64,000 nucleotides of DNA, taken from NCBI GenBank assembly GCA_045653035.1, contig JAZOLO010000006.1, positions 21,066 to 85,065 of the forward strand, given 5' to 3'. The notes below the pieces were generated by a model. It worked only from the letters and a program-made list of their open reading frames with translations. It ran no database searches and was not told where the DNA came from. Source of the stretch: Eubacteriales bacterium. Its GTDB lineage: Bacteria; Bacillota; Clostridia; Oscillospirales; SIG627. A program made the position numbers and the translations under genes. This document shows positions 1,811 to 12,037 of the stretch, one piece after another (the first letter of the stretch is position 1; each line of letters begins with the position of its first letter).

Positions 1811-1976
1811 GTTTTAATTTTTTACAATTGTGAACTCCAAAGCACCATGTTAGAAGCTTTTTATAAATTAAAGAAAGAAAAACGTTAAAAAGGGATAAAA
1901 TAATATATAACGCTTGACGAAAGCCTCAATATATGGTAAAATTCTACGATTAAACCCTAAAAAGCGAGGAAAAATT

Positions 1977-3893
1977 ATGGAAGAAAAAAATAAGTTCAAG
2001 CCTTATATTCCCGCAAGTAAAGTAACGCCTGAGCTTACCGTAACATCGGTAATCATGGGTATTCTTCTTGCAGTAATATTCGGTGCGGCGAATGCATATC
2101 TCGGACTCCGTGTGGGCATGACTGTGTCTGCTTCTATTCCTGCCGCAGTCATAGCTATGGGTGTTATCCGAGTTGTTATGAAGAAAAATTCAATTCTCGA
2201 AAGTAATATCGTACAGACTGTAGGCTCCGCAGGTGAGTCTCTTGCGGCAGGTGCTATATTCACTCTCCCTGCCCTCTATCTTTGGGCAAGAGAGGGACTT
2301 ATGGAAAAGCCTGACCTTGTTGAGATTACCCTTATTGCACTTCTCGGAGGACTTCTCGGCGTATTCTTTATGGTTCCCCTCCGAAACGCTCTTATCGTAA
2401 AAGAGCACGGTGTGCTTCCTTATCCCGAAGGACAGGCGTGTGCCGAGGTGCTTCTTGCAGGTGAGGAGAGTGGCTCGTCTGCGAAGACAGTCTTTGCAGG
2501 TATGGGCTTTGCGGCACTTTTCAAGTTTATTATCGACGGGGTAAAAATCGTTCCCGGTGAGGTTTCCCTCGAGGGCAGTACTAAAACATACCCCGCATCC
2601 TTCGGTACACAGATTTACCCTGCCGTAATGTCGGTAGGCTATATTTGCGGACCGAGAATTTCTTCTTATATGCTTGCTGGCGGTATAGTGAGCTGGGTTG
2701 TTTTAATACCTCTTATCGTTATTTTCGGTGCTTCCATTACTATGTATCCCGTAACCGACAGCACTATCGGTGAGCTTTTCCAGACAGGCGGAGCAAGCTC
2801 TATATGGAGCAGCTTTGTCAGATATATCGGTGCAGGTGCTCTTGCGGCTGGCGGTATCATAAGCCTTCTGAAATCACTTCCCCTTATTATACGAACCTTT
2901 GCCGATGCTTTGAGGGGGCTCTCTTCGGGCGGTGCCGTTTCAAACGAGCGTACAACACAGGACATAAACATTAAAATAGTTCTTATTTTAATACTCATTT
3001 TAACACTTCTCGTATGGCTTGTTCCAGTGGTTCCCGTATCCCTTGTAGGAGCTATAATCGTAGTTATCTTCGGCTTCTTCTTTGCAACGGTTTCCTCCCG
3101 TATGGTAGGACTTGTAGGAAGCAGTAACAACCCTGTTTCGGGCATGTCTATTGCAACGCTTCTTATAGCAACCCTCATCCTGAAGCTTACAGGAGAAGCG
3201 GGTGCTTCTGGTATGCAGGCGGCTATAGCTATCGGTTCAATTATATGTATCGTTGCCGCAATCTCTGGCGATACCTCTCAAGACCTGAAAACAGGATATC
3301 TCCTCGGTGCTACACCGAAAAAACAGCAGATCGGTGAAATTATCGGTGTAGTCGCTGCGGCTTTTGCTATCGGTGCAACGCTTAACCTTCTTGACACTGC
3401 TTGGGGCTTTGGCTCGAACGAGCTTGCAGCACCTCAGGCGACTCTTATGAAGATGGTTATCGAGGGTATTATGGGCGGTGAGCTTCCCTGGTCTCTCATC
3501 TTCGTAGGCGTAGCTCTTGCAGTGGTGGCAGAGGTGCTTGGTATTCCCGTTTTACCCTTTGCTATCGGTGTTTATCTCCCTGTACAGCTGAATGCTTGTA
3601 TCATGGTGGGTGGTATCGTAAGATTTTTTATGGACAGAATTAAGAACGAAGAAAAGAGAAAGACTGCTACAAGCAACGGTATCCTCTTCTGCTCGGGTAT
3701 GATAGCAGGTGAGGGACTCGTAGGTATTCTTCTTGCGGTTATTGCAATATTCGGCGTTGATAAGATGCTTGATTTATCAGCCAAACTCGGTCTCTCTACA
3801 CTTTGGTCAAGCCTTGGCTCACTTGTTGTTTTTGCCGCAATAGTTCTTGTTCTTGTTAAATTCTGCCTTGGCAAGAAAGAGAAAAAACAATGA
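1977..3893 (+). CDS. OPT-family oligopeptide transporter
   Basis: About 640 aa polytopic membrane protein with OPT-type blocks (YPEGQACAEVL, GxxxG-rich TMs). Start chosen at ATG 1977 (MEEKNKFKPYIP), after GAGGAAAAATT. Confidence 0.8.
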   Translation: MEEKNKFKPYIPASKVTPELTVTSVIMGILLAVIFGAANAYLGLRVGMTVSASIPAAVIAMGVIRVVMKKNSILESNIVQTVGSAGESLAAGAIFTLPALYLWAREGLMEKPDLVEITLIALLGGLLGVFFMVPLRNALIVKEHGVLPYPEGQACAEVLLAGEESGSSAKTVFAGMGFAALFKFIIDGVKIVPGEVSLEGSTKTYPASFGTQIYPAVMSVGYICGPRISSYMLAGGIVSWVVLIPLIVIFGASITMYPVTDSTIGELFQTGGASSIWSSFVRYIGAGALAAGGIISLLKSLPLIIRTFADALRGLSSGGAVSNERTTQDINIKIVLILILILTLLVWLVPVVPVSLVGAIIVVIFGFFFATVSSRMVGLVGSSNNPVSGMSIATLLIATLILKLTGEAGASGMQAAIAIGSIICIVAAISGDTSQDLKTGYLLGATPKKQQIGEIIGVVAAAFAIGATLNLLDTAWGFGSNELAAPQATLMKMVIEGIMGGELPWSLIFVGVALAVVAEVLGIPVLPFAIGVYLPVQLNACIMVGGIVRFFMDRIKNEEKRKTATSNGILFCSGMIAGEGLVGILLAVIAIFGVDKMLDLSAKLGLSTLWSSLGSLVVFAAIVLVLVKFCLGKKEKKQ

Positions 3894-4243
3894 AGAAAAA
3901 GACAGTAATTCAAAAGAATTACCTTGAAAAGATACCCTGTCGCCCCTTTGAAATAAACTGGAAAAAGGACGAAGAGGGAATAGTAACTCTCGAAATAGAG
4001 AATTGCGGTTTTATGAACAGGGTAGCTCAAAAGCTTTTCCGCAAGCCCAAAATAAGCTTTATCCACCTTGACGAGCTGGGAAGCTTTTTGTGGGAGATTA
4101 TTGATGGTGAGAAATCAATTCTCGACCTTGGACTTCTTGTCAAAGAAAAATTTGGTGAAAAAGCCCAACCACTCTACGAAAGACTCGCAAAGTATTTTAT
4201 GATACTTGACTCCTACGGCTTTGTGAAATGGGCAAATAAATGA
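3890..4243 (+). CDS. PqqD-family (RiPP-recognition-element-like) small protein
   Basis: HLDELGSFLWEIIDGEKSILDL...FGE...RLAKYFMILDSYGFVKW matches the PqqD/RRE winged-helix pattern as I recall it. The start overlaps the OPT stop (ATGA). Confidence 0.6.
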   Translation: MKKKTVIQKNYLEKIPCRPFEINWKKDEEGIVTLEIENCGFMNRVAQKLFRKPKISFIHLDELGSFLWEIIDGEKSILDLGLLVKEKFGEKAQPLYERLAKYFMILDSYGFVKWANK

Positions 4244-4253
4244 CAAAAAAATC

Positions 4254-4282
4254 TTGACATTTTTACTTTATTGTGCTAAAAT
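4254..4282 (+). promoter_or_regulatory. Sigma-A type promoter of the T-box operon
   Basis: TTGACA (4254-4259), 17-nt spacer, TGc-TAAAAT extended -10 (4277-4282). Confidence 0.6.
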
Positions 4283-4289
4283 ACCACTA

Positions 4290-4563
4290 TCATCTAAATG
4301 CGTTGAGCAGAAACAAGTAGAAATTCAGTAGAGCCACAAGAGAGTTGTCGGTTGGTGCGAGACAACGGCAGTCTGATTTTTGAATACCTTCTGTTAGCAG
4401 TGCACCGAAAGGAAACGAGTAGGCTGCAACGGGAGTTCCCGTAACAGAACAAGGGTATAGCAAGTACCCGTAAAGGTCGGAGCTGTGAAACTTCGGCGAA
4501 CAGAGGTGGTACCACGGTTTTGAAGAAATCGTCCTCTTTGAAAAAAGAGGACGTTATTTTTTT
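4290..4563 (+). promoter_or_regulatory. T-box leader (tRNA-sensing transcription attenuator), probable UAC (Tyr) specifier
   Basis: K-turn-like GTTGA (4302-4306). S-turn AAGTA. AG bulge AGAGAG (4339-4344). Distal loop GGTGCGA (4354-4360). Specifier loop GAA-UAC-C (UAC at 4385-4387). T-box core AGGTGGTACCACGG (4504-4517). Terminator CGTCCTCTTT/AAAGAGGACG plus T-run (4530-4563), with alternative AGAGG:CCTCT antiterminator pairing. Confidence 0.85.
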
Positions 4564-4617
4564 CCATTGGATTACGTTCTCTTCCTTGCAAAATAAAAAA
4601 AGAAAGAAGGGACTTGA

Positions 4618-6189
4618 ATGGAAACACAAATTCTTACAAGTATTATGCTTGTAATATTCTTCGCAGTAATGATTGGTGTCGGACTTTTTTGCCGCCGCCA
4701 CTCCACAAACGTTGACGGATTCGTCCTCGGTGGCAGAAGCGTCGGTCCTTGGCTTACAGCCTTTGCATATGGCACAAGCTACTTTTCGGCGGTTATCTTT
4801 GTCGGCTATGCGGGACAGTTCGGCTGGGCTTTCGGTATGGCGTCCACATGGATAGGTCTCGGCAACGCATTTATCGGCTCACTTCTTGCATGGGTGATAC
4901 TCGGCAGAAGAACGAGAGTTATGACAAAGCATCTTGAAAGCAAGACTATGCCTGAATTTTTTGAAAAGAGATATGACTCAAAGGCACTTAAAATAGTTGC
5001 TTCATTCATCGTTTTCGTATTCCTTATTCCTTATACGGCATCTCTCTACAATGGACTTTCAAGCCTTTTTAATATGGCTTTCGGTATTCCTTACCCAGTT
5101 GTAATTGCAGTTATGGCAGTCCTTACGGGAATTTACGTAATATACGGCGGATATATGGCAACTGCCATAAACGATTTCATTCAGGGAATTATTATGCTTG
5201 TTGGTATCGTTGCTGTTATAACGGCGGTGATAGTATCAAAGGGTGGCTTTACCGAGGCTTACTCGGCACTTGCTGAAATTCCACACGAAACAATGTCGGG
5301 AGCGTATGCGTCATTTCTTGGACCTGAACCCGTATTCCTTTTCTTTGTAGTAATTCTTACATCTCTTGGCACTTGGGGACTTCCTCAGATGGTTGGTAAA
5401 TTCTACTCCATCAATAACGAGGAGGCAATAAACAAGGGTACTATTATTTCAACTATATTTGCTATTATCGTTGCAGGGGGCTGTTACTTCCTCGGAGGAT
5501 TTGGCAGACTTTTTGACAGTGAGGCTCTTTACGCCAATGGAAAACTCATGAATGACAAAATTATTCCTTCGATGCTTTCAGACCTTTCACCTATAATTGT
5601 TGCGATAGTTATAGTGCTTGTTCTTGCGGCATCAATGTCAACTCTCTCCTCACTTGTACTTACCTCTGCATCAACTCTTACTCTTGACGTTGTTGCCCCC
5701 GCATCAAAAAAAGAAATGACAGAAAAGGAAAAGCTTCTCACACTCCGTCTTTTCATAGTGTTCTTTATTGTTGTTTCGGCAGTAATTGCAATAGTCAAGG
5801 ATATGTTCCCGGGCTTTACCTTCATTGCACAGATGATGGGCGTATCATGGGGTGCTTTGGCAGGTGCATTCCTCCCTCCTTTCCTCTACGGACTCTACTC
5901 CAAAAAGGTTACAAAGGCGGCAGTTCTTTGTTCCTTTATATTCGGTACTGGTATTGAGGTAATTCAGCTTTTAAAGGACTTTGGACTTTTCACTATAGAT
6001 GGCGGTTTCCTCGGCTTCGTATTTACAAACTCTCTCTACTCAGGCGTATTTGCGATAGCGGGCGGACTTATCCTCGTTCCCGTTGTCAGCCTCTTTACTC
6101 CAAAGCTGAACAAAGAGGAAACGGATAAGATGTTCTCCTGCTACGAAAGAGAAGTTAAGGTTTACTCAAAACAGTCACTTGGAAAATAA
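4618..6189 (+). CDS. Sodium:solute symporter (SSS) family transporter
   Basis: 523 aa with about 13 TM segments and an SSS-like N-terminus (GGRSVGPWLTAFAYGTSYFSAVIFVGYAG). First gene after the T-box. Confidence 0.8.
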   Translation: METQILTSIMLVIFFAVMIGVGLFCRRHSTNVDGFVLGGRSVGPWLTAFAYGTSYFSAVIFVGYAGQFGWAFGMASTWIGLGNAFIGSLLAWVILGRRTRVMTKHLESKTMPEFFEKRYDSKALKIVASFIVFVFLIPYTASLYNGLSSLFNMAFGIPYPVVIAVMAVLTGIYVIYGGYMATAINDFIQGIIMLVGIVAVITAVIVSKGGFTEAYSALAEIPHETMSGAYASFLGPEPVFLFFVVILTSLGTWGLPQMVGKFYSINNEEAINKGTIISTIFAIIVAGGCYFLGGFGRLFDSEALYANGKLMNDKIIPSMLSDLSPIIVAIVIVLVLAASMSTLSSLVLTSASTLTLDVVAPASKKEMTEKEKLLTLRLFIVFFIVVSAVIAIVKDMFPGFTFIAQMMGVSWGALAGAFLPPFLYGLYSKKVTKAAVLCSFIFGTGIEVIQLLKDFGLFTIDGGFLGFVFTNSLYSGVFAIAGGLILVPVVSLFTPKLNKEETDKMFSCYEREVKVYSKQSLGK

Positions 6190-6210
6190 CTTGAAAAAGG
6201 ATATATAAAA

Positions 6211-7851
6211 ATGCCTATTACAGAAATCTTACAGAAAAATGCAGACATTTATCCCAACGACGTTGCCCTCGTTGAGATAAACCCCAAATTTGAAAGACAG
6301 CGTACCTCATGGCGTGAGTACTCCCTTATCGAGACAAACTCACGCGAGGTATACCGAAAGGAGATTACCTGGCAGGACTTCAACTGCAAGGCAAACCGAT
6401 TTGCAAACCTTCTCCTGTCAAGAGGTGTAAAACGCGGTGACAAGGTGGCAATTCTTCTCATGAACTGTCTTGAGTGGCTTCCTGTTTACTTCGGTGCACT
6501 CAAAGCAGGCACTATGGCAGTGCCTCTCAATTACCGTTATACAGGTGACGAAATCAAATACTGTCTTGACTTATCCGATGCCGACGTTCTTGTATTCGGA
6601 CCTGAATTTACAGGACGTGTAGAGGAAATATGCCACAAGGCAAAGAAGGTAAAGACGTGGCTTTACATAGGTGAGGACTGTCCTACCTTCGCGGAAAGCT
6701 ACGAGGAGCTTGTAGAATACTGCTCGTCAAAGGCTCCGAAAATAAAGCTTACCGATGACGATGATGCGGCAATCTACTTCTCCTCGGGAACAACAGGCTT
6801 CCCCAAGGCTATTATACATAAGCACAGAAGTCTCATGCACGCGGCAATGACCGAGCAAAATCATCACTCACAGACAAAGGATGACGTATTCCTTTGTATT
6901 CCTCCTCTCTACCATACGGGTGCGAAGAGGCACTGAGTCGGCTCAATCCTTGTGGGAGGACGTGCGGTGCTTCTCAACGGTATTAAGCCCGAGTGGATTT
7001 TGCAGGTTGCATCTGAGGAAAGATGCTCTATCGTATGGCTTCTCGTACCCTGGGCACAGGATTTGCTTGATGCAATAGAGAGAGGCGATATAAAGCTTGA
7101 GGACTACGATTTGTCGGCTTGGCGTCTTATGCATATAGGTGCTCAGCCCGTTCCTCCAAGTCTTGTTAAGCGTTGGAAGGGATACTTCCCTCACCATGCA
7201 TACGATACAAACTATGGTCTCTCTGAGTCGATAGGTCCAGGCTGTGTACACCTTGGCGTTGAAAACGAAGATAAGGTTGGTGCTATCGGAAAAGCAGGCT
7301 ACGGCTGGCAGACCAAGATAGTTGACGAAGAAAGAAACGAAGTGAAGAAGGGTGAGGTAGGTGAGCTTGCAGTAAAGGGTCCCGGTGTTATGACCGCTTA
7401 CTACAAGGACGAAAAGGCTACCTCCGAGGTGCTTTCCGACGGTTGGCTCTTTACGGGAGATATGGCAGAGGAGGACGAGGACGGCTTCATTTGGCTTGTT
7501 GACCGTAAGAAGGACGTTATTATATCTGGCGGTGAAAACCTTTACCCCGTACAGATTGAGGACTTCCTCCGCCGTCACGATAAGATAAACGACGTTGCGG
7601 TAATAGGACTTCCCGACCCAAGACTTGGTGAAATTGCCGCCGCTATTATTCAGGCAAAAGAAGGCGTTGAGCTTGACGAGAAGGAGATTCAGGACTTCTG
7701 TCTTGACCTTCCGAGATACAAGAGACCTCACAAGATAATATTTGCAGACGTACCTCGTAACCCGACGGGTAAAATAGAGAAGCCCAAGCTTCGCCGTATA
7801 TACTGCGGTGAAAGCCTTGTAGCAAAACAGAATGAAATCAAAAACGTGTAA
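6211..7851 (+). pseudogene. AMP-dependent acyl-CoA synthetase/ligase interrupted by one in-frame TGA (6934-6936). Pseudogene, sequencing error or recoding.
   Basis: Listed ORFs 6211..6936 and 6952..7851 are in the same frame. Translation reads ...PPLYHTGAKRH*VGSILVGGRAVLLNG.... AMP-binding motifs are present (SSGTTGFPK, GWLFTGD, GKIEKPKLR). Confidence 0.75.
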
Positions 7852-7868
7852 AATAAGGGAGACAAAAA

Positions 7869-9605
7869 ATGAAGAAATTACTGCTTGGAAATGCGGCAGT
7901 TGCAAGAGGTGCCTATGAGGCAGGCGTAAACGTTGTGTCATCATACCCAGGCACTCCTTCGACCGAGATAACCGAAGAAATTGTTAAGTTTGAAGAAATA
8001 TATGCAGAGTGGGCGCCTAACGAAAAGGTAGCCGCAGAGGTTGCAATCGGTGCATCCATCGGCGGTGCAAGAGCTATGAGCTGTATGAAGCACGTAGGTC
8101 TTAACGTTATGGCAGACCCTGTTTTCACAGTGAGCTATACAGGCGTGAACGGCGGACTTGTATTCTGTGTTGCAGACGACCCAGGAATGCACTCCTCACA
8201 GAATGAGCAGGACTCACGCCACTATGCCAAGGCTTCAAAGATTATGATGCTTGAGCCCTCCGATTCGGCAGAGTGCCGTGATATGACGAAGGCGGCTTTC
8301 GAGCTTTCTGAAAAGTTCGATACTCCCGTATTTATACGCCTTTCCACAAGAGTTTCTCACTCACAGAGCCTTGTTGAGCTTCACGATAGGGAAGAGGTAG
8401 GTATTAAGGACTACGAAAAAAATATTCCCAAATACGTTATGATGCCAGCAATGGCAATAAAGCGTCACGTTGTGGTTGAGGATAGAATAAAGGCACTCAC
8501 CGCTTTTGCTGAGGAGTCGGACATTAACAAAATTGAAAACAACGGCTCAAAGATTGGTGTTATCACTGCAGGTATCTCCTATATGTATTCAAAAGAGGCA
8601 CTTCAGGATAAAGCCGATTTCTTGAAGCTCGGTATGGTTTATCCCCTCCCCGAAAAGAAGATTCTCGACTTTGCAAAGAGCCACGATAAGCTTTTCGTTA
8701 TCGAAGAGCTTGACCCCGTAATCGAGGAGCATATCAAGGCACTTGGTATTGAGGTTATCGGAAAAGAAGCCTTCACCCTTCTGGGCGAGTACACTCCCGC
8801 AATGATAAAGAAGGCGGTACTTGGCGAGGACGCTCCCGAAAGCAAGGCTCTCACCGAAGCTATCCCCGTTCGTCCTCCCGTAATGTGTGCAGGCTGTCCT
8901 CACAGAGGTACCTTCTACGTACTCAAAAAGCTCGGTCTCGTGGTATCGGGCGACATCGGATGCTATACTCTCGGTGCAACACTTCCTCTCCAGTCGGTTG
9001 ACACCACCATTTGTATGGGTGCATCCGTTTCGGCGGCACACGGCATGGCAAAAGCAAGAGGAGCTGAATTCAACAAGAAGCTTGTATCCGTTATAGGTGA
9101 TTCCACCTTTATGCATTCGGGTATTACAGGACTTATTGACATAGTTTACAATAAGGGTAACAATACGGTTATCATTCTTGACAACTCTATTACGGGTATG
9201 ACGGGACATCAGGATAACCCCACTACAGGCTATACCATAAGAGGCGAGGAGACAAAGCAGGTAAATCTTGTAACTCTCTGTAAGTCAATAGGTATTGACA
9301 ATGTTGTGGTTGCCGACCCCTTTGACGTAAAGAGCTTTGAGAAGGTAGTCAAGGCAGAGGTAGAGAGGGAAGAGCCCTCTGTAATTATTGCACAGCGTCC
9401 CTGCGCACTTCTTAAGAGTGTAAAATATGAGGGCGTTTGCAAGATAACCGATAAATGCCGTAACTGTAAGATGTGCATGAAGCTTGGCTGTCCTGCAATT
9501 ACCGTAAGAGAGGGCAAGGTGGTAATTGATGCAACTCAGTGTAACGGATGCGGACTTTGTATAAACGTTTGTCCTTTCGGTGCTATCGAAAAGGAGGAAA
9601 GATAA
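7869..9605 (+). CDS. iorA: Indolepyruvate:ferredoxin oxidoreductase alpha subunit
   Basis: 578 aa. TPP-binding GDSTFMHSG. C-terminal 2x[4Fe-4S] motifs (CRNCKMCMKLGCP, CNGCGLCINVCP). Confidence 0.85.
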   Translation: MKKLLLGNAAVARGAYEAGVNVVSSYPGTPSTEITEEIVKFEEIYAEWAPNEKVAAEVAIGASIGGARAMSCMKHVGLNVMADPVFTVSYTGVNGGLVFCVADDPGMHSSQNEQDSRHYAKASKIMMLEPSDSAECRDMTKAAFELSEKFDTPVFIRLSTRVSHSQSLVELHDREEVGIKDYEKNIPKYVMMPAMAIKRHVVVEDRIKALTAFAEESDINKIENNGSKIGVITAGISYMYSKEALQDKADFLKLGMVYPLPEKKILDFAKSHDKLFVIEELDPVIEEHIKALGIEVIGKEAFTLLGEYTPAMIKKAVLGEDAPESKALTEAIPVRPPVMCAGCPHRGTFYVLKKLGLVVSGDIGCYTLGATLPLQSVDTTICMGASVSAAHGMAKARGAEFNKKLVSVIGDSTFMHSGITGLIDIVYNKGNNTVIILDNSITGMTGHQDNPTTGYTIRGEETKQVNLVTLCKSIGIDNVVVADPFDVKSFEKVVKAEVEREEPSVIIAQRPCALLKSVKYEGVCKITDKCRNCKMCMKLGCPAITVREGKVVIDATQCNGCGLCINVCPFGAIEKEER

Positions 9606-9606
9606 A

Positions 9607-10164
9607 ATGACGAAAAACGTAATGATTGTAGGTGTAGGCGGTCAGGGTACACTCCTTGCAAGCCGAATACTTGGTAATACAGTTATAAACGAGGGGTATG
9701 ACGTAAAGGTTTCGGAGGTTCACGGAATGAGCCAGAGAGGCGGAAGCGTTGTAACCTACGTAAAATACGGTGATAAGGTTTATTCTCCCATTGTTGACAA
9801 GGGTGAGGCGGATATTATTCTCGCTTTCGAGCTTCTCGAAGCATATCGTGCACTCCCTTATCTTAAGAAGGGCGGAAAGATTATTGTAAATAATCAGAAG
9901 ATAGACCCCATGCCCGTAATTTCGGGACTTGCTGAGTACCCTGAAAATATCGCGGAAAAGCTTGGTGACGCTACCGTTGTTGACGCACTCTCTCTTGCAA
10001 AAGAGGCAGGCAACACAAAGGCAGTAAACGTTGTGCTCATCGGCGTTATGGCAAAAAGCACCGATATCCCTTATGAAAAGTGGGTAGAAACTATCAAGGC
10101 TACAGTACCTCCAAAATTCCTTGAAGTTAATATCCGTGCTTTTGACCTGGGATACAATCTGTAA
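9607..10164 (+). CDS. iorB: Indolepyruvate:ferredoxin oxidoreductase beta subunit
   Basis: MTKNVMIVGVGGQGTLLASRILG is a gamma-type 2-oxoacid oxidoreductase fold. The ATG lies 1 nt after the iorA stop. Confidence 0.8.
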   Translation: MTKNVMIVGVGGQGTLLASRILGNTVINEGYDVKVSEVHGMSQRGGSVVTYVKYGDKVYSPIVDKGEADIILAFELLEAYRALPYLKKGGKIIVNNQKIDPMPVISGLAEYPENIAEKLGDATVVDALSLAKEAGNTKAVNVVLIGVMAKSTDIPYEKWVETIKATVPPKFLEVNIRAFDLGYNL

Positions 10165-10179
10165 AGGAGGGAGCTTTTT

Positions 10180-11484
10180 ATGTCAATGTGGCAACCCCAA
10201 ATTGAAGCTATGCCGAGAGAGGAGCTTGAAAAGCTTCAGAGTGAAAGACTCGTGGAACAGGTAAAGAGAATGTATGAAAAGGTAGAGCTTTTTAGAAAGA
10301 GAATGGACGAAAAGGGACTTACTCCCTCGGATATCCATGGAATAGAAGATTTACATAAGCTTCCCTTTTCCTATAAACAGGATTTAAGAGACTATTATCC
10401 TTATGGACTTTTTGCAACTCCTATGTCCGAGATAAGACGTGTACACGCCTCCTCGGGTACAACGGGTAAGCAGATTGTTGTAGGATATACCGATAACGAC
10501 CTCGATATGTGGGCTAACTGCTTTGCAAGAATGCTTGCGGCAACGGGTGCCGATGAAAATTCCTTCGTACACGTCGGCTACGGTCTCGGACTCTTTACGG
10601 GAGGCTTCGGTGCACATGACGGAGCTGTTAAAATAGGTGCAACCGTTATTCCCATTTCGGCAGGTAATACCCAGCGTCAGATACAGACAATGATTGACTT
10701 CGGCTCAACGGTTCTTTGCTGTACCCCCTCTTACGCTATGTATCTCGGCGAAGCTATCGAGGAAATGGGCGTAAAGGACAAGCTCAGCCTTAAGGCGGGT
10801 ATCTTCGGTGCAGAGCCCTGGACTGAAGAAATGAGATGTCAGATAGAAGAAAAGCTTAATATCAAGGCATACGATATCTACGGACTTTCCGAAATCATGG
10901 GGCCGGGTGTTTCCTACGAGTGTGAATACCAGTGCGGTATGCACGTTTGCGAGGACAACTTTATTCCTGAAATCATCGACCCGGATACAGGCGAGGTGCT
11001 TCCCAGAGGTGCACAGGGTGAGCTTGTATTCACCACTATTACCAAGGAAGGCTTCCCCCTTATCCGATATAGAACAAGAGATATATGTTCTCTTAACTAC
11101 GAGCCCTGTAAGTGTGGCAGAACTCACGTCAGAATGAAAAAGCCTCAGGGAAGAACCGACGATATGCTCATTATACGCGGTGTAAACGTATTCCCCTCAC
11201 AGATTGAGGAGGTACTCCTTAAGGTTGGCGGTGACGTTACACCTAACTACCAGATTGTGGTAGACAGAGTGAACAACAATGACACCTTTGAGGTTAAGGT
11301 GGAAATGAGCGAGGAGCTCTTCACCGACGGCGTTAAGGGAATTGAGAGAGTAGAAAAGACTATTTCTGAAAACCTTCGTTCAACTCTCGGAATAGGCCCC
11401 AAGGTTACTCTCGTTAATCCCAAGTCAATCGTCAGAAGCGAAGGCAAGGCAAAGAGAATAATAGATTTAAGAAAGCTCAGCTAA
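10180..11484 (+). CDS. paaK: Phenylacetate-CoA ligase family protein (AMP-forming)
   Basis: 434 aa. PaaK-type N-terminus ([16 protein letters not shown]...[16 protein letters not shown]), SSGTTGK, and a C-terminal [10 protein letters not shown]. Confidence 0.85.
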
Positions 11485-11497
11485 AGGAGGAAGAAAA

Positions 11498-11920
11498 ATG
11501 TTTATAAAACAGCTTTCCGTATTTGTAGAAAACAAAGTGGGCAGACTTGAAGCGATAATTGATACTCTTGGTAAAAACGGCATCAATATGAGAGCACTTT
11601 CCATTGCAGATACAACCGACTTTGGAATACTCAGAGTCATTGTAGACGATACTGACAAGGCAAAGAAAAGCCTTCAGGAAATAGGAGTTATCGCCAAAGC
11701 GACAGACGTTATTGCAGTATATATCGACGATAAGGCAGGAGGACTTGCCGAGGTGCTTTGTGACCTTACAGAGGAGAGCATCGGCGTTGAATATATGTAC
11801 GCTTTCCTTGCACGTGATACCTCAAAGGCACTGATGGTACTTAAAGCCGACGATGAAGAAAAGGCAGAAAAGGTACTTCGCACTAAGGGCGTTGAAATGC
11901 TCGACCCCAAGGATTTATAA
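11498..11920 (+). CDS. ACT-domain protein
   Basis: 140 aa with two ACT-like halves (MFIKQLSVFVENKVGRL...). This is the typical partner downstream of paaK/ior genes. Confidence 0.75.
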   Translation: MFIKQLSVFVENKVGRLEAIIDTLGKNGINMRALSIADTTDFGILRVIVDDTDKAKKSLQEIGVIAKATDVIAVYIDDKAGGLAEVLCDLTEESIGVEYMYAFLARDTSKALMVLKADDEEKAEKVLRTKGVEMLDPKDL

Positions 11921-12005: not shown

Positions 12006-12037
12006 TCCGTAATACGTCAAGTATTACGGATTTTTTT
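12006..12037. terminator. Bidirectional rho-independent terminator ending the T-box operon
   Basis: TCCGTAATAC-GTCAA-GTATTACGGA stem, flanked by an A-run upstream and T7 downstream. Confidence 0.8.

Follow-up and report, generated by a model that had tools for sequence, protein, structure and literature searches.

The stretch analyzed here, in the following called the window, comprises 64,000 nt of a Eubacteriales bacterium (SIG627) belonging to the ruminant-gut Clostridia (GCA_045653035.1, contig JAZOLO010000006.1, positions 21,066-85,065 of the forward strand). It contains a Tyr-specific T-box leader RNA directly upstream of a six-gene operon, which encodes a sodium:solute symporter (SSS), a FadD-like ligase (LIG), the two subunits of an indolepyruvate:ferredoxin oxidoreductase (IOR; IorA and IorB), a PaaK-type coenzyme A (CoA) ligase and an ACT-domain protein. 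The genes were assigned with Pfam and NCBIfam profile models. The locus is organized as follows:

4254-4282, plus strand: σ70-type promoter with -35 TTGACA (4254-4259), 17-nt spacer and -10 TAAAAT (4277-4282), 11 of 12 consensus matches
4294-4539, plus strand: full-length T-box leader RNA (RF00230, 114.7 bits, E = 1.3e-24, model positions 1-219 of 219)
4300-4398, plus strand: Stem I with K-turn region, specifier loop, AG bulge and distal loop (Rfam alignment and RNAalifold)
4308-4312 and 4389-4393, plus strand: lower Stem I helix CAGAA/UUCUG, covarying pairs
4313-4319, plus strand: 5′ specifier loop (S-turn) of Stem I, ACAAGUA
4339-4344, plus strand: AG bulge of Stem I, AGAGAG
4350-4361, plus strand: distal loop of Stem I, GGUUGGUGCGAG
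4382-4388, plus strand: 3′ specifier loop of Stem I, GAA-UAC-C
4385-4387, plus strand: specifier codon UAC (Tyr), after the S-turn GAA (4382-4384) and before C4388, which is followed by the lower helix
4504-4516, plus strand: T-box core AGGUGGUACCACG, UGGU bulge at 4507-4510
4530-4563, plus strand: intrinsic terminator of the leader, 10-bp stem CGUCCUCUUU/AAAGAGGACG with loop GAAA (hairpin 4530-4553) plus T-run
4618-6189, plus strand: SSS, sodium:solute symporter, 523 amino acids (Pfam SSF, PF00474)
6211-7851, plus strand: LIG, FadD-like AMP-forming acyl-CoA ligase, 546 codons (AMP-binding and AMP-binding_C), with an in-frame TGA
7869-9605, plus strand: IorA, indolepyruvate:ferredoxin oxidoreductase alpha subunit, 578 amino acids (TIGR03336, 749.2 bits, cutoff 650.9)
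9607-10164, plus strand: IorB, indolepyruvate:ferredoxin oxidoreductase beta subunit, 185 amino acids (NF005325, 288.5 bits, cutoff 230)
10180-11484, plus strand: PaaK-type phenylacetate (arylacetate)-CoA ligase, AMP-forming, 434 amino acids (TIGR02155, 535.2 bits)
11498-11920, plus strand: tandem-ACT-domain protein, 140 amino acids (PF19571 ACT_8, 105.7 bits)
12006-12037, both strands: bidirectional intrinsic terminator ending the operon, 10-bp stem with T-runs on both strands

For comparison we used 240 loci (numbered with the prefix L) from species-representative genomes, which were retrieved via SSS, PaaK and LIG. These are mostly metagenome-assembled genomes (MAGs) of Oscillospiraceae, Acutalibacteraceae, Lachnospiraceae, Ruminococcus and Congzhengia, from hosts that include goat, sheep, cattle, deer, buffalo and horse as well as the human gut; the nearest relatives of the window are of bovine, sheep, goat and deer gut origin. 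The loci contain 73 distinct related leaders, whose specifier codons were read from an alignment anchored by a hidden Markov model.

The initial annotation of this DNA, made from the sequence alone, had described a canonical promoter, and it is indeed present at 4254-4282. It tops a 9-kb scan, carries an extended -10 region (TGcTAAAAT, 4274-4282, with the TG at 4274-4275) and ends 12 nt upstream of the T-box. Matching promoters of the type TTGAC...TGnTAAAAT/TAAACT align 5′ of related leaders. The T-box is the sole Rfam match across the 64-kb window, and in the covariance-model search that had been suggested as a check it exceeds the RF00230 gathering score of 93 bits by a clear distance (114.7 bits). 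The same score was passed by 13 of the 14 related leaders given to Rfam, with the leader of L202 staying below the threshold.

An RNAalifold consensus of 39 diverse leaders recovers Stem I, with compensatory changes at 20 of 20 predicted pairs. The leader had been called complete, which holds for the S-turn, the AG bulge, the distal loop, the core and the terminator/antiterminator pair, while one half of the K-turn deviates: the UGA of the 5′ strand is in place (GUUGAG, 4302-4307), whereas the 3′ strand (4394-4398) reads UUAGC, with UA instead of the GA of the canonical GAGC. UAGC or UAGU is found at this position in about 8 of the 39 related leaders (for example L001, L083, L013, L118, L129, L164 and L009), and judged from this alignment the UA variant is tolerated though non-canonical. 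The UGGU bulge is present in every related leader. The 5′ arm of the terminator overlaps the antiterminator 3′ strand CCUCU (4533-4537), so that the two structures are mutually exclusive. For the terminator region, the minimum free energy is -22.6 kcal/mol and the centroid structure is the terminator hairpin.

By analogy to the glyQS architecture, the specifier had been read as UAC (Tyr), and covariation among the related leaders recovers the same geometry. In all of them a helix joins the five bases after UAC or UUC plus one nucleotide to the five that precede the 7-nt NNNAGUA loop, with covarying lower-helix pairs such as CAGAA/UUCUG, CGGGA/UCCCG, CGAAA/UUUCG and GAAAA/UUUUU, and GAA-UAC-N is unpaired in the consensus of the 39 leaders. 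The survey of related genomes that had been proposed gave 67 UAC and 6 UUC specifiers. After the codon, 60 of the 73 leaders have A, 10 have C and three have G; the canonical UAC-A occurs in 54 of the 67 Tyr leaders, and the C of the window, which is not the usual purine, in 10 of these 67. Three leaders carry one extra base between GAA and UAC, while UAC-A stays anchored on the helix.

We considered whether the specifier should instead be read with a shift, as ACC (Thr) or CCU (Pro), in which case a non-aromatic tRNA would be sensed and the symporter would be Pro- or Thr-related. If the window alone is aligned by Rfam, GAAUACCU is placed ungapped at lowered posterior probability and ACC nominally occupies the codon columns; the C after UAC and PutP as the symporter's top-scoring model point the same way. 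Rfam places the related leaders L018, L001 and L004 as GAA-UUCA or GAA-UACA. Against a shift stands the lower Stem I helix, which begins directly after UAC plus one base in all leaders. In the +1 frame these would read ACA, ACC, ACG or UCA, with U coming next each time, and the +2 frame is unconserved (CCU in the window, CAU in most relatives); the alternation of UAC and UUC, in turn, fits Tyr and Phe. The discriminator bases agree with this. UGGU had been taken to predict a partner with A73, compatible with tRNA-Tyr, and tRNA-Tyr(GUA) carries A73 in both genes found in the retrieved loci of related genomes. In these genomes tRNA-Thr has U73 in eight of eight genes and tRNA-Ser has G73 in all complete genes; L204 even combines a Tyr-type T-box operon with tRNA-Thr (U73) and tRNA-Tyr (A73) on one contig. 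Since UGGU is present in every leader and requires A73, the +1 register (Thr/Ser) is excluded. The position of the covarying helix, the 73 related leaders and the match between UGGU and discriminator thus settle the register as UAC. The ACC or CCU outcome, named beforehand as one that would overturn the Tyr assignment, is ruled out by helix and discriminators, and we attach next to no probability to a non-aromatic specifier.

The six genes are separated by gaps of 21, 17, 1, 15 and 13 nt, as previously noted, and no strong plus-strand terminator was found between the leader and position 12006. Because no gap exceeds 21 nt and no strong internal terminator intervenes, we regard the genes as a single operon. 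IorA is a fused alpha subunit with thiamine pyrophosphate and 2x[4Fe-4S] domains (Pfam POR_N, TPP_enzyme_C and Fer4). PaaK (PF14535, AMP-binding_C_2, 108.9 bits; PF00501, 45.6 bits) stays under the TIGR02155 equivalog cutoff of 646.3 bits and is therefore a PaaK-family protein, not the equivalog of the aerobic paa pathway; among solved structures it comes close to PaaK1/2 (2Y27, 424 bits) and to 4R1L of Bacteroides (384 bits). The ACT protein, with 2F06 as nearest solved structure, is always paired with PaaK and may be an amino-acid-binding regulatory subunit.

The claim of a Tyr T-box over the whole operon can be generalized: all 73 leaders of other species carry UGGU and lie directly upstream of the same genes, which are linked in many orders across the loci. 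The leaders are distributed as follows:

UAC, SSS-LIG-IorA-IorB-PaaK-ACT: 31 leaders, plus truncated versions
UAC, LIG-IorA-IorB-PaaK-ACT, without SSS: 10 leaders
UAC, LIG-SSS: 5 leaders, plus one running on into iorAB-paaK-act
UAC, SSS alone: 9 leaders
UAC, LIG alone (short contigs): 3 leaders
UUC, PaaK-ACT: 5 leaders
UUC, LIG-SSS: 1 leader

SSS is found under a Tyr T-box in about 50 species, and LIG and/or SSS under Tyr T-boxes in about 60. The six Phe-type (UUC) T-boxes are located at the following positions:

L009, 4503-4817, minus strand: directly 5′ of paaK-ACT
L034, 4463-4777, minus strand: directly 5′ of paaK-ACT
L149, 290-590: directly 5′ of paaK-ACT
L150, 6676-6974: directly 5′ of paaK-ACT
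L155, 1409-1706: directly 5′ of paaK-ACT
L018, 2990-3275: 5′ of LIG-SSS

In L009 and L034 the Phe leader separates iorB from paaK within the cluster. Which codon is used goes with the ligase downstream, Tyr with LIG/SSS and Phe with PaaK-ACT. Because leaders also precede LIG-iorAB-paaK-ACT and paaK-ACT in units without SSS, the T-box targets the ligases and IOR and not the transporter alone. It had been proposed that the Tyr-salvage idea would fall if the symporter grouped with proline or pantothenate symporters and were the only regulated gene. The symporter is PutP/PanF-like; it is not the sole regulated gene, with 10 Tyr leaders in front of units lacking SSS and five Phe leaders on paaK-ACT.

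Based on these observations, we consider it probable, though well short of certain, that the Tyr T-box and its module serve an anabolic route from arylacetate via aryl-CoA and arylpyruvate to Tyr or Phe. When tRNA-Tyr is charged, the leader terminator (4530-4563) would form and transcription would stop. Uncharged tRNA-Tyr would pair through its anticodon with UAC in Stem I, and its free ACCA end would pair with UGGU, which would stabilize the antiterminator and allow read-through into the six genes. The Na+ symporter would then bring in an arylacetate, most likely 4-hydroxyphenylacetate, and the FadD-like ligase and PaaK would form arylacetyl-CoA thioesters at the expense of ATP, which is converted to AMP. 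IorAB working in reverse would use reduced ferredoxin and CO2 to convert aryl-CoA to arylpyruvate, from which a housekeeping aminotransferase would make Tyr (and Phe or Trp), and the ACT protein probably feeds an amino-acid signal back on PaaK. In this scheme, LIG would be a 4-hydroxyphenylacetate-CoA ligase.

Genes that T-boxes turn on in response to an uncharged cognate tRNA supply the corresponding amino acid, and induction by uncharged tRNA therefore makes sense only for amino-acid supply. Both ligases of the operon are AMP-forming, and genes for a phosphotransacylase, a kinase or an ADP-forming ligase are missing from it. It is this combination of T-box logic, AMP-forming ligases and missing energy-conserving enzymes that argues for the anabolic direction. 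Characterized IORs act reversibly on indole-, phenyl- and 4-hydroxyphenyl-pyruvate.

Published clusters provide a measure for both directions. Catabolic arylpyruvate oxidoreductase clusters contain a phosphotransacylase (Pta) and a kinase, or an ADP-forming ligase (Jiang 2026, PMC13285125), and in Clostridium difficile iorAB is grouped with an aminotransferase and a butyrate kinase under SigL (CD2382-iorAB-butK, PMC7438776). In Bacteroides, the IOR-linked AMP-forming ligase was assayed as an arylacetate-CoA ligase, and a biosynthetic IOR was suggested, as in methanogens (PMC13285125). According to Porat 2004, as cited in PMC4162585, aryl acids feed aromatic amino-acid synthesis in Methanococcus maripaludis, which encodes IOR subunits, and Allison 1965, listed in PMC7356843, reportedly described formation of Phe from phenylacetate in rumen bacteria. 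The salvage reading of the initial annotation is the most coherent explanation and agrees with Jiang 2026 (PMC13285125) and with Porat 2004 as cited in PMC4162585; we still infer it, and the ligase of this copy is interrupted.

We regard it as very improbable that the T-box is linked to these genes only incidentally or for some other reason, for example to clear competing aromatic 2-oxoacids. IOR is reversible; it serves catabolism in Pyrococcus, and in B. thetaiotaomicron it has a part in the formation of phenylacetate (PMC13285125), and database annotation commonly assumes fermentation. Yet a degradative pathway for an amino acid would need the reverse of induction by uncharged tRNA-Tyr or tRNA-Phe, AMP-forming ligases favor thioester synthesis, and the Pta, kinase or ADP-forming ligase of the catabolic clusters are missing here. 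Since the linkage is found with 73 leaders and in several gene orders, it is not incidental. A separate concern is the state of the ligase gene, for which the initial annotation had reported no interruption: its frame contains a TGA at 6934-6936, at a codon that specifies Trp in 32 of 32 homologues. With two neighboring changes (M-to-R and F-to-V), this makes three substitutions in 9 nt (6929-6937), by which KMHWFGS becomes KRH*VGS. If the operon is decaying in this strain, LIG would be a pseudogene and the window a relic, a reading that the lesion in an otherwise invariant motif makes worth considering, as does the canonical motif with TGG (T, G and T at 6929, 6936 and 6937) in related-strain contigs from three gut metagenomes. 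We nevertheless regard decay as doubtful. No further stops or frameshifts were found in LIG, whose domains are recognizable in both halves, and apart from the lesion the gene is under purifying selection: its ratio of nonsynonymous to synonymous substitution rates (dN/dS) relative to relatives (0.045-0.051) is level with that of IorA (0.049-0.056). The remainder of the locus shows no damage, be it in the other five genes, the promoter, the T-box or the terminators. Errors of assembly or consensus calling also typically produce such tight groups of three mismatches in metagenome contigs of low coverage, and low-level UGA read-through by tRNA-Trp, which is known from some Firmicutes, would restore the Trp. 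The TGA thus reflects either faulty assembly or an inactivating mutation of very recent origin. We found no same-strain reads over the TGA, and the 100%-identical X2 contig stops at 6832. Selenocysteine at the TGA was rejected, as the homologues have Trp and not Cys at this position, and an alternative genetic code was rejected as well, as the other window genes have intact reading frames and the upstream gene ends in TGA.

The symporter leaves more room for a different assignment. The initial annotation had pointed to the phenylacetate permeases of the SSS family, which is true of the family and not of this branch: SSS scores 33-41 bits with the ActP models (40.8 bits for the model with a cutoff of 1099; cutoffs 750-1099) and 56.8 bits with MctC (cutoff 670), compared to 204.1 bits with PutP (TIGR02121, cutoff 515.5) and 165.1 bits with PanF (TIGR02119, cutoff 328). 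It stays below every equivalog cutoff and passes Pfam SSF (186 versus 22.8 bits), and it represents a distinct, widespread, PutP/PanF-like subfamily of Clostridia. Solved structures gave only distant matches (SGLT, vSGLT and SiaT) and no substrate call, and its gene neighbors in genomes without T-box or adjacent ligase are variable and uninformative on the substrate. In about 45% of 80 SSS loci LIG adjoins SSS, as SSS-LIG, LIG-SSS (gaps of 23-46 nt) or divergent pairs. SSS may import 4-hydroxyphenylacetate or another arylacetate, or else tyrosine. One could keep the T-box and the anabolic ligase/IOR module unchanged and have SSS import tyrosine, an arylpyruvate or an aryl-lactate, with arylacetates entering by diffusion or another carrier; with tyrosine as substrate, the operon would join direct Tyr uptake with salvage synthesis. 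The known Tyr-T-box transporters NhaC and NSS, which are predicted tyrosine importers (PMC2494555), fit such a role. We consider it rather unlikely for this symporter, which lies directly beside LIG in varied orders, forms LIG-SSS minimal T-box units typical of an uptake-plus-activation pair for one acid, and scores far under the PutP cutoff.

Several observations weigh against the anabolic arylacetate reading or parts of it. With PutP and PanF, not ActP and MctC, as best models, a carboxylate substrate of SSS is not implied by its family. PutP is an amino-acid carrier, and the nine species with a Tyr T-box ahead of SSS alone show mostly monocistronic units; these units and the PutP likeness fit a tyrosine importer equally well. 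LIG has received no assignment to a specific family, and its best relatives in the PDB are FadD13, FadD5 and feruloyl-/4-coumarate-CoA ligases at about 200-240 bits, generic matches that do not point to a substrate. The LIG copy of the window may be inactive because of the premature TGA and the two adjacent substitutions in the invariant motif. The T-box is missing from many orthologous clusters: the full six-gene order with a visible 5′ end was found 26 times with and 16 times without it. Finally, none of the RNA-seq runs searched for the operon region contain it; DNA runs with the region hold only relatives at about 90-95% identity, in addition to the X2 contig.

In the clusters lacking the T-box, we identified a palindromic box, CTTTAAAG (variants CACTTTAAAGTG and GCTTTAAAGC), which overlaps the promoter in one to three copies, often two or three. 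Of the upstream regions without a T-box, 50 of 154 contain it, versus 1 of 69 T-box promoters, at a background of 0.046 per kb, and a stricter 12-mer is found in intergenic regions almost only upstream of SSS (20) and LIG (13). Sites of the box include:

L014, about 8790-9000
L066, about 8820-9000
L176, about 4560-4650
also L186, L208, L088 and L104

Given this enrichment in T-box-less clusters, a DNA-binding regulator seems to replace the riboswitch there, and CTTTAAAG appears to be its candidate operator in those lineages. We looked for a regulator gene near the boxes and for a wider regulon, and found no regulator nearby. In a single case, L070 (contig shared with L219), a gene for an NhaC-family transporter (PF03553; 4318-6039, minus strand) that is divergent from a Tyr-T-box LIG-SSS unit has a CTTTAAAG box upstream. 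As Wels 2008 (PMC2494555) reports this family under Tyr T-boxes, the case gives one hint about the regulator.

The closest known counterpart of the leader is that of Bacillus subtilis tyrS, which Grundy and Henkin reportedly described as a Tyr-specific class I T-box. Like tyrS and RF00230 in general, the window leader has a full Stem I (S-turn loop, AG bulge and distal loop), Stem II/IIA-B and Stem III, a 14-nt T-box sequence with UGGU, a UAC specifier and a partner with A73, and its terminator and antiterminator are predicted to act by transcriptional attenuation. In contrast to tyrS, it governs a transporter/CoA-ligase/IOR operon and not an aminoacyl-tRNA synthetase, and it deviates at the base that follows the codon (C) and in the K-turn, whose 3′ half has UA.

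The enzyme genes resemble the clusters of Bacteroides and methanogens (Jiang 2026, PMC13285125; Porat 2004 as cited in PMC4162585), where iorA-iorB lies beside a PaaK-type AMP-forming ligase in a proposed or demonstrated anabolic route. The window operon differs from these by the SSS symporter, a second, FadD-like ligase and the tRNA-Tyr riboswitch on the whole unit, to which relatives add a tRNA-Phe riboswitch on paaK-act; no such regulation is mentioned in these papers. With HpdDEFG-HpdJ-HpdK of C. scatologenes (PMC13285125) and CD2382-iorAB-butK of C. difficile (PMC7438776), it shares an oxidoreductase with thiamine diphosphate and [4Fe-4S] clusters, predicted for the window to act likewise on aryl-pyruvates with an aryl-acetyl-CoA intermediate. 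These catabolic clusters, unlike the window operon, have a phosphotransacylase and a kinase (or an ADP-forming ligase), often together with an aminotransferase, and are under SigL or substrate induction, whereas the window operon has AMP-forming ligases only and is predicted to be starvation-induced.

As for the transporter, a Tyr T-box directly 5′ of a secondary transporter gene is known from NhaC and NSS, the predicted tyrosine importers reported by Wels 2008 (PMC2494555), and SSS is likewise the sole gene in nine species. That study lists no ior, paaK or SSS target, and SSS (TC 2.A.21) is outside its seven T-box-regulated transporter families. Unlike NhaC and NSS, SSS is genomically coupled to a CoA ligase. 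With the ActP and PhaJ permeases it shares the superfamily (PF00474) and the postulated arylacetate substrate, whereas the subfamily differs.

Full-text literature searches returned no description of T-box control of ior, paaK, LIG or SSS, although an earlier database listing is possible, and T-box regulon tables of the RegPrecise type (PMC3766115 supplements) contain no ior or paaK target. T-box control of the module therefore appears to be new, whereas an anabolic combination of IOR and AMP-forming ligase was already proposed (Jiang 2026; Porat 2004 as cited in PMC4162585). T-box, IOR and PaaK are individually ordinary members of their families; the regulon target is new and the mechanism is not.

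Annotation usually assigns the IOR/PaaK clusters of gut anaerobes to aromatic amino-acid fermentation, and it serves to predict output of phenylacetate, 4-hydroxyphenylacetate and indoleacetate, from which phenylacetylglutamine and p-cresol derive. A T-box on the module in more than 70 species, with its Tyr or Phe codon matched to the ligase, provides independent evidence for the synthesis direction in these Clostridia and for arylacetate consumption. For the rumen reductive-carboxylation pathway there are now two candidate genes, one for a transporter and one for a ligase specific for 4-hydroxyphenylacetate. The SSS family and a ferredoxin oxidoreductase join the known targets of T-boxes, and the same genes have a likely alternative DNA operator. 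If true, T-box codons would annotate a previously gene-less rumen pathway from arylacetates to aromatic amino acids.

We tentatively extend this to a division of labor, for which we would not claim even odds as a whole. LIG and SSS would constitute a Tyr branch, as ligase and importer of 4-hydroxyphenylacetate, PaaK-ACT a Phe branch and IorAB the shared carboxylase, and these would be genes of the rumen arylacetate pathway. Many gut Oscillospiraceae, Acutalibacteraceae and Lachnospiraceae would consume phenylacetate and 4-hydroxyphenylacetate, which give rise to phenylacetylglutamine and p-cresol of the host, on Tyr/Phe starvation, with a CTTTAAAG-binding regulator replacing the T-box elsewhere.

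The genes flanking the operon are unrelated to it: upstream lie an OPT-family transporter gene and one for a PqqD-like protein, downstream GH109-like and AraC genes. The upstream pair directly precedes the T-box promoter:

1914-4243, plus strand: OPT-family oligopeptide transporter, followed by a small PqqD-like protein (4-nt overlap)

A homologue of the small PqqD-like gene is also found upstream of the operon in two other loci. A 333-amino acid open reading frame antisense to LIG (6943-7944, minus strand) has no Pfam hit and shows stops in the aligned frame of most relatives; lacking both conservation and a Pfam hit, it is considered spurious.

Among the comparison loci, in the clusters L059, L073 and L079, which have no T-box, iorAB is preceded by a further, divergent PaaK paralogue (49-52% identity) in addition to paaK-ACT; the substrate of this paralogue may be another arylacetate, for example indoleacetate. 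Close homologues of the Clostridia-type SSS or LIG genes also occur in non-Firmicutes MAGs (L051, Spirochaetia; L170, L206, L207 and L228, Lentisphaerae/Victivallales; L021, Treponema), and in L051, whose MAG is labeled Spirochaetia, the gene is under a Tyr T-box. These occurrences could reflect horizontal transfer or mis-binning. Other structured RNAs in the set are a lysine riboswitch in L013 (5702-5869, minus strand) and a Gut-1 RNA (RF01706) beside a tRNA gene in L150 (1929-2003, minus strand) and L155 (70-144, minus strand), in both cases upstream of the Phe-T-box paaK-ACT unit.

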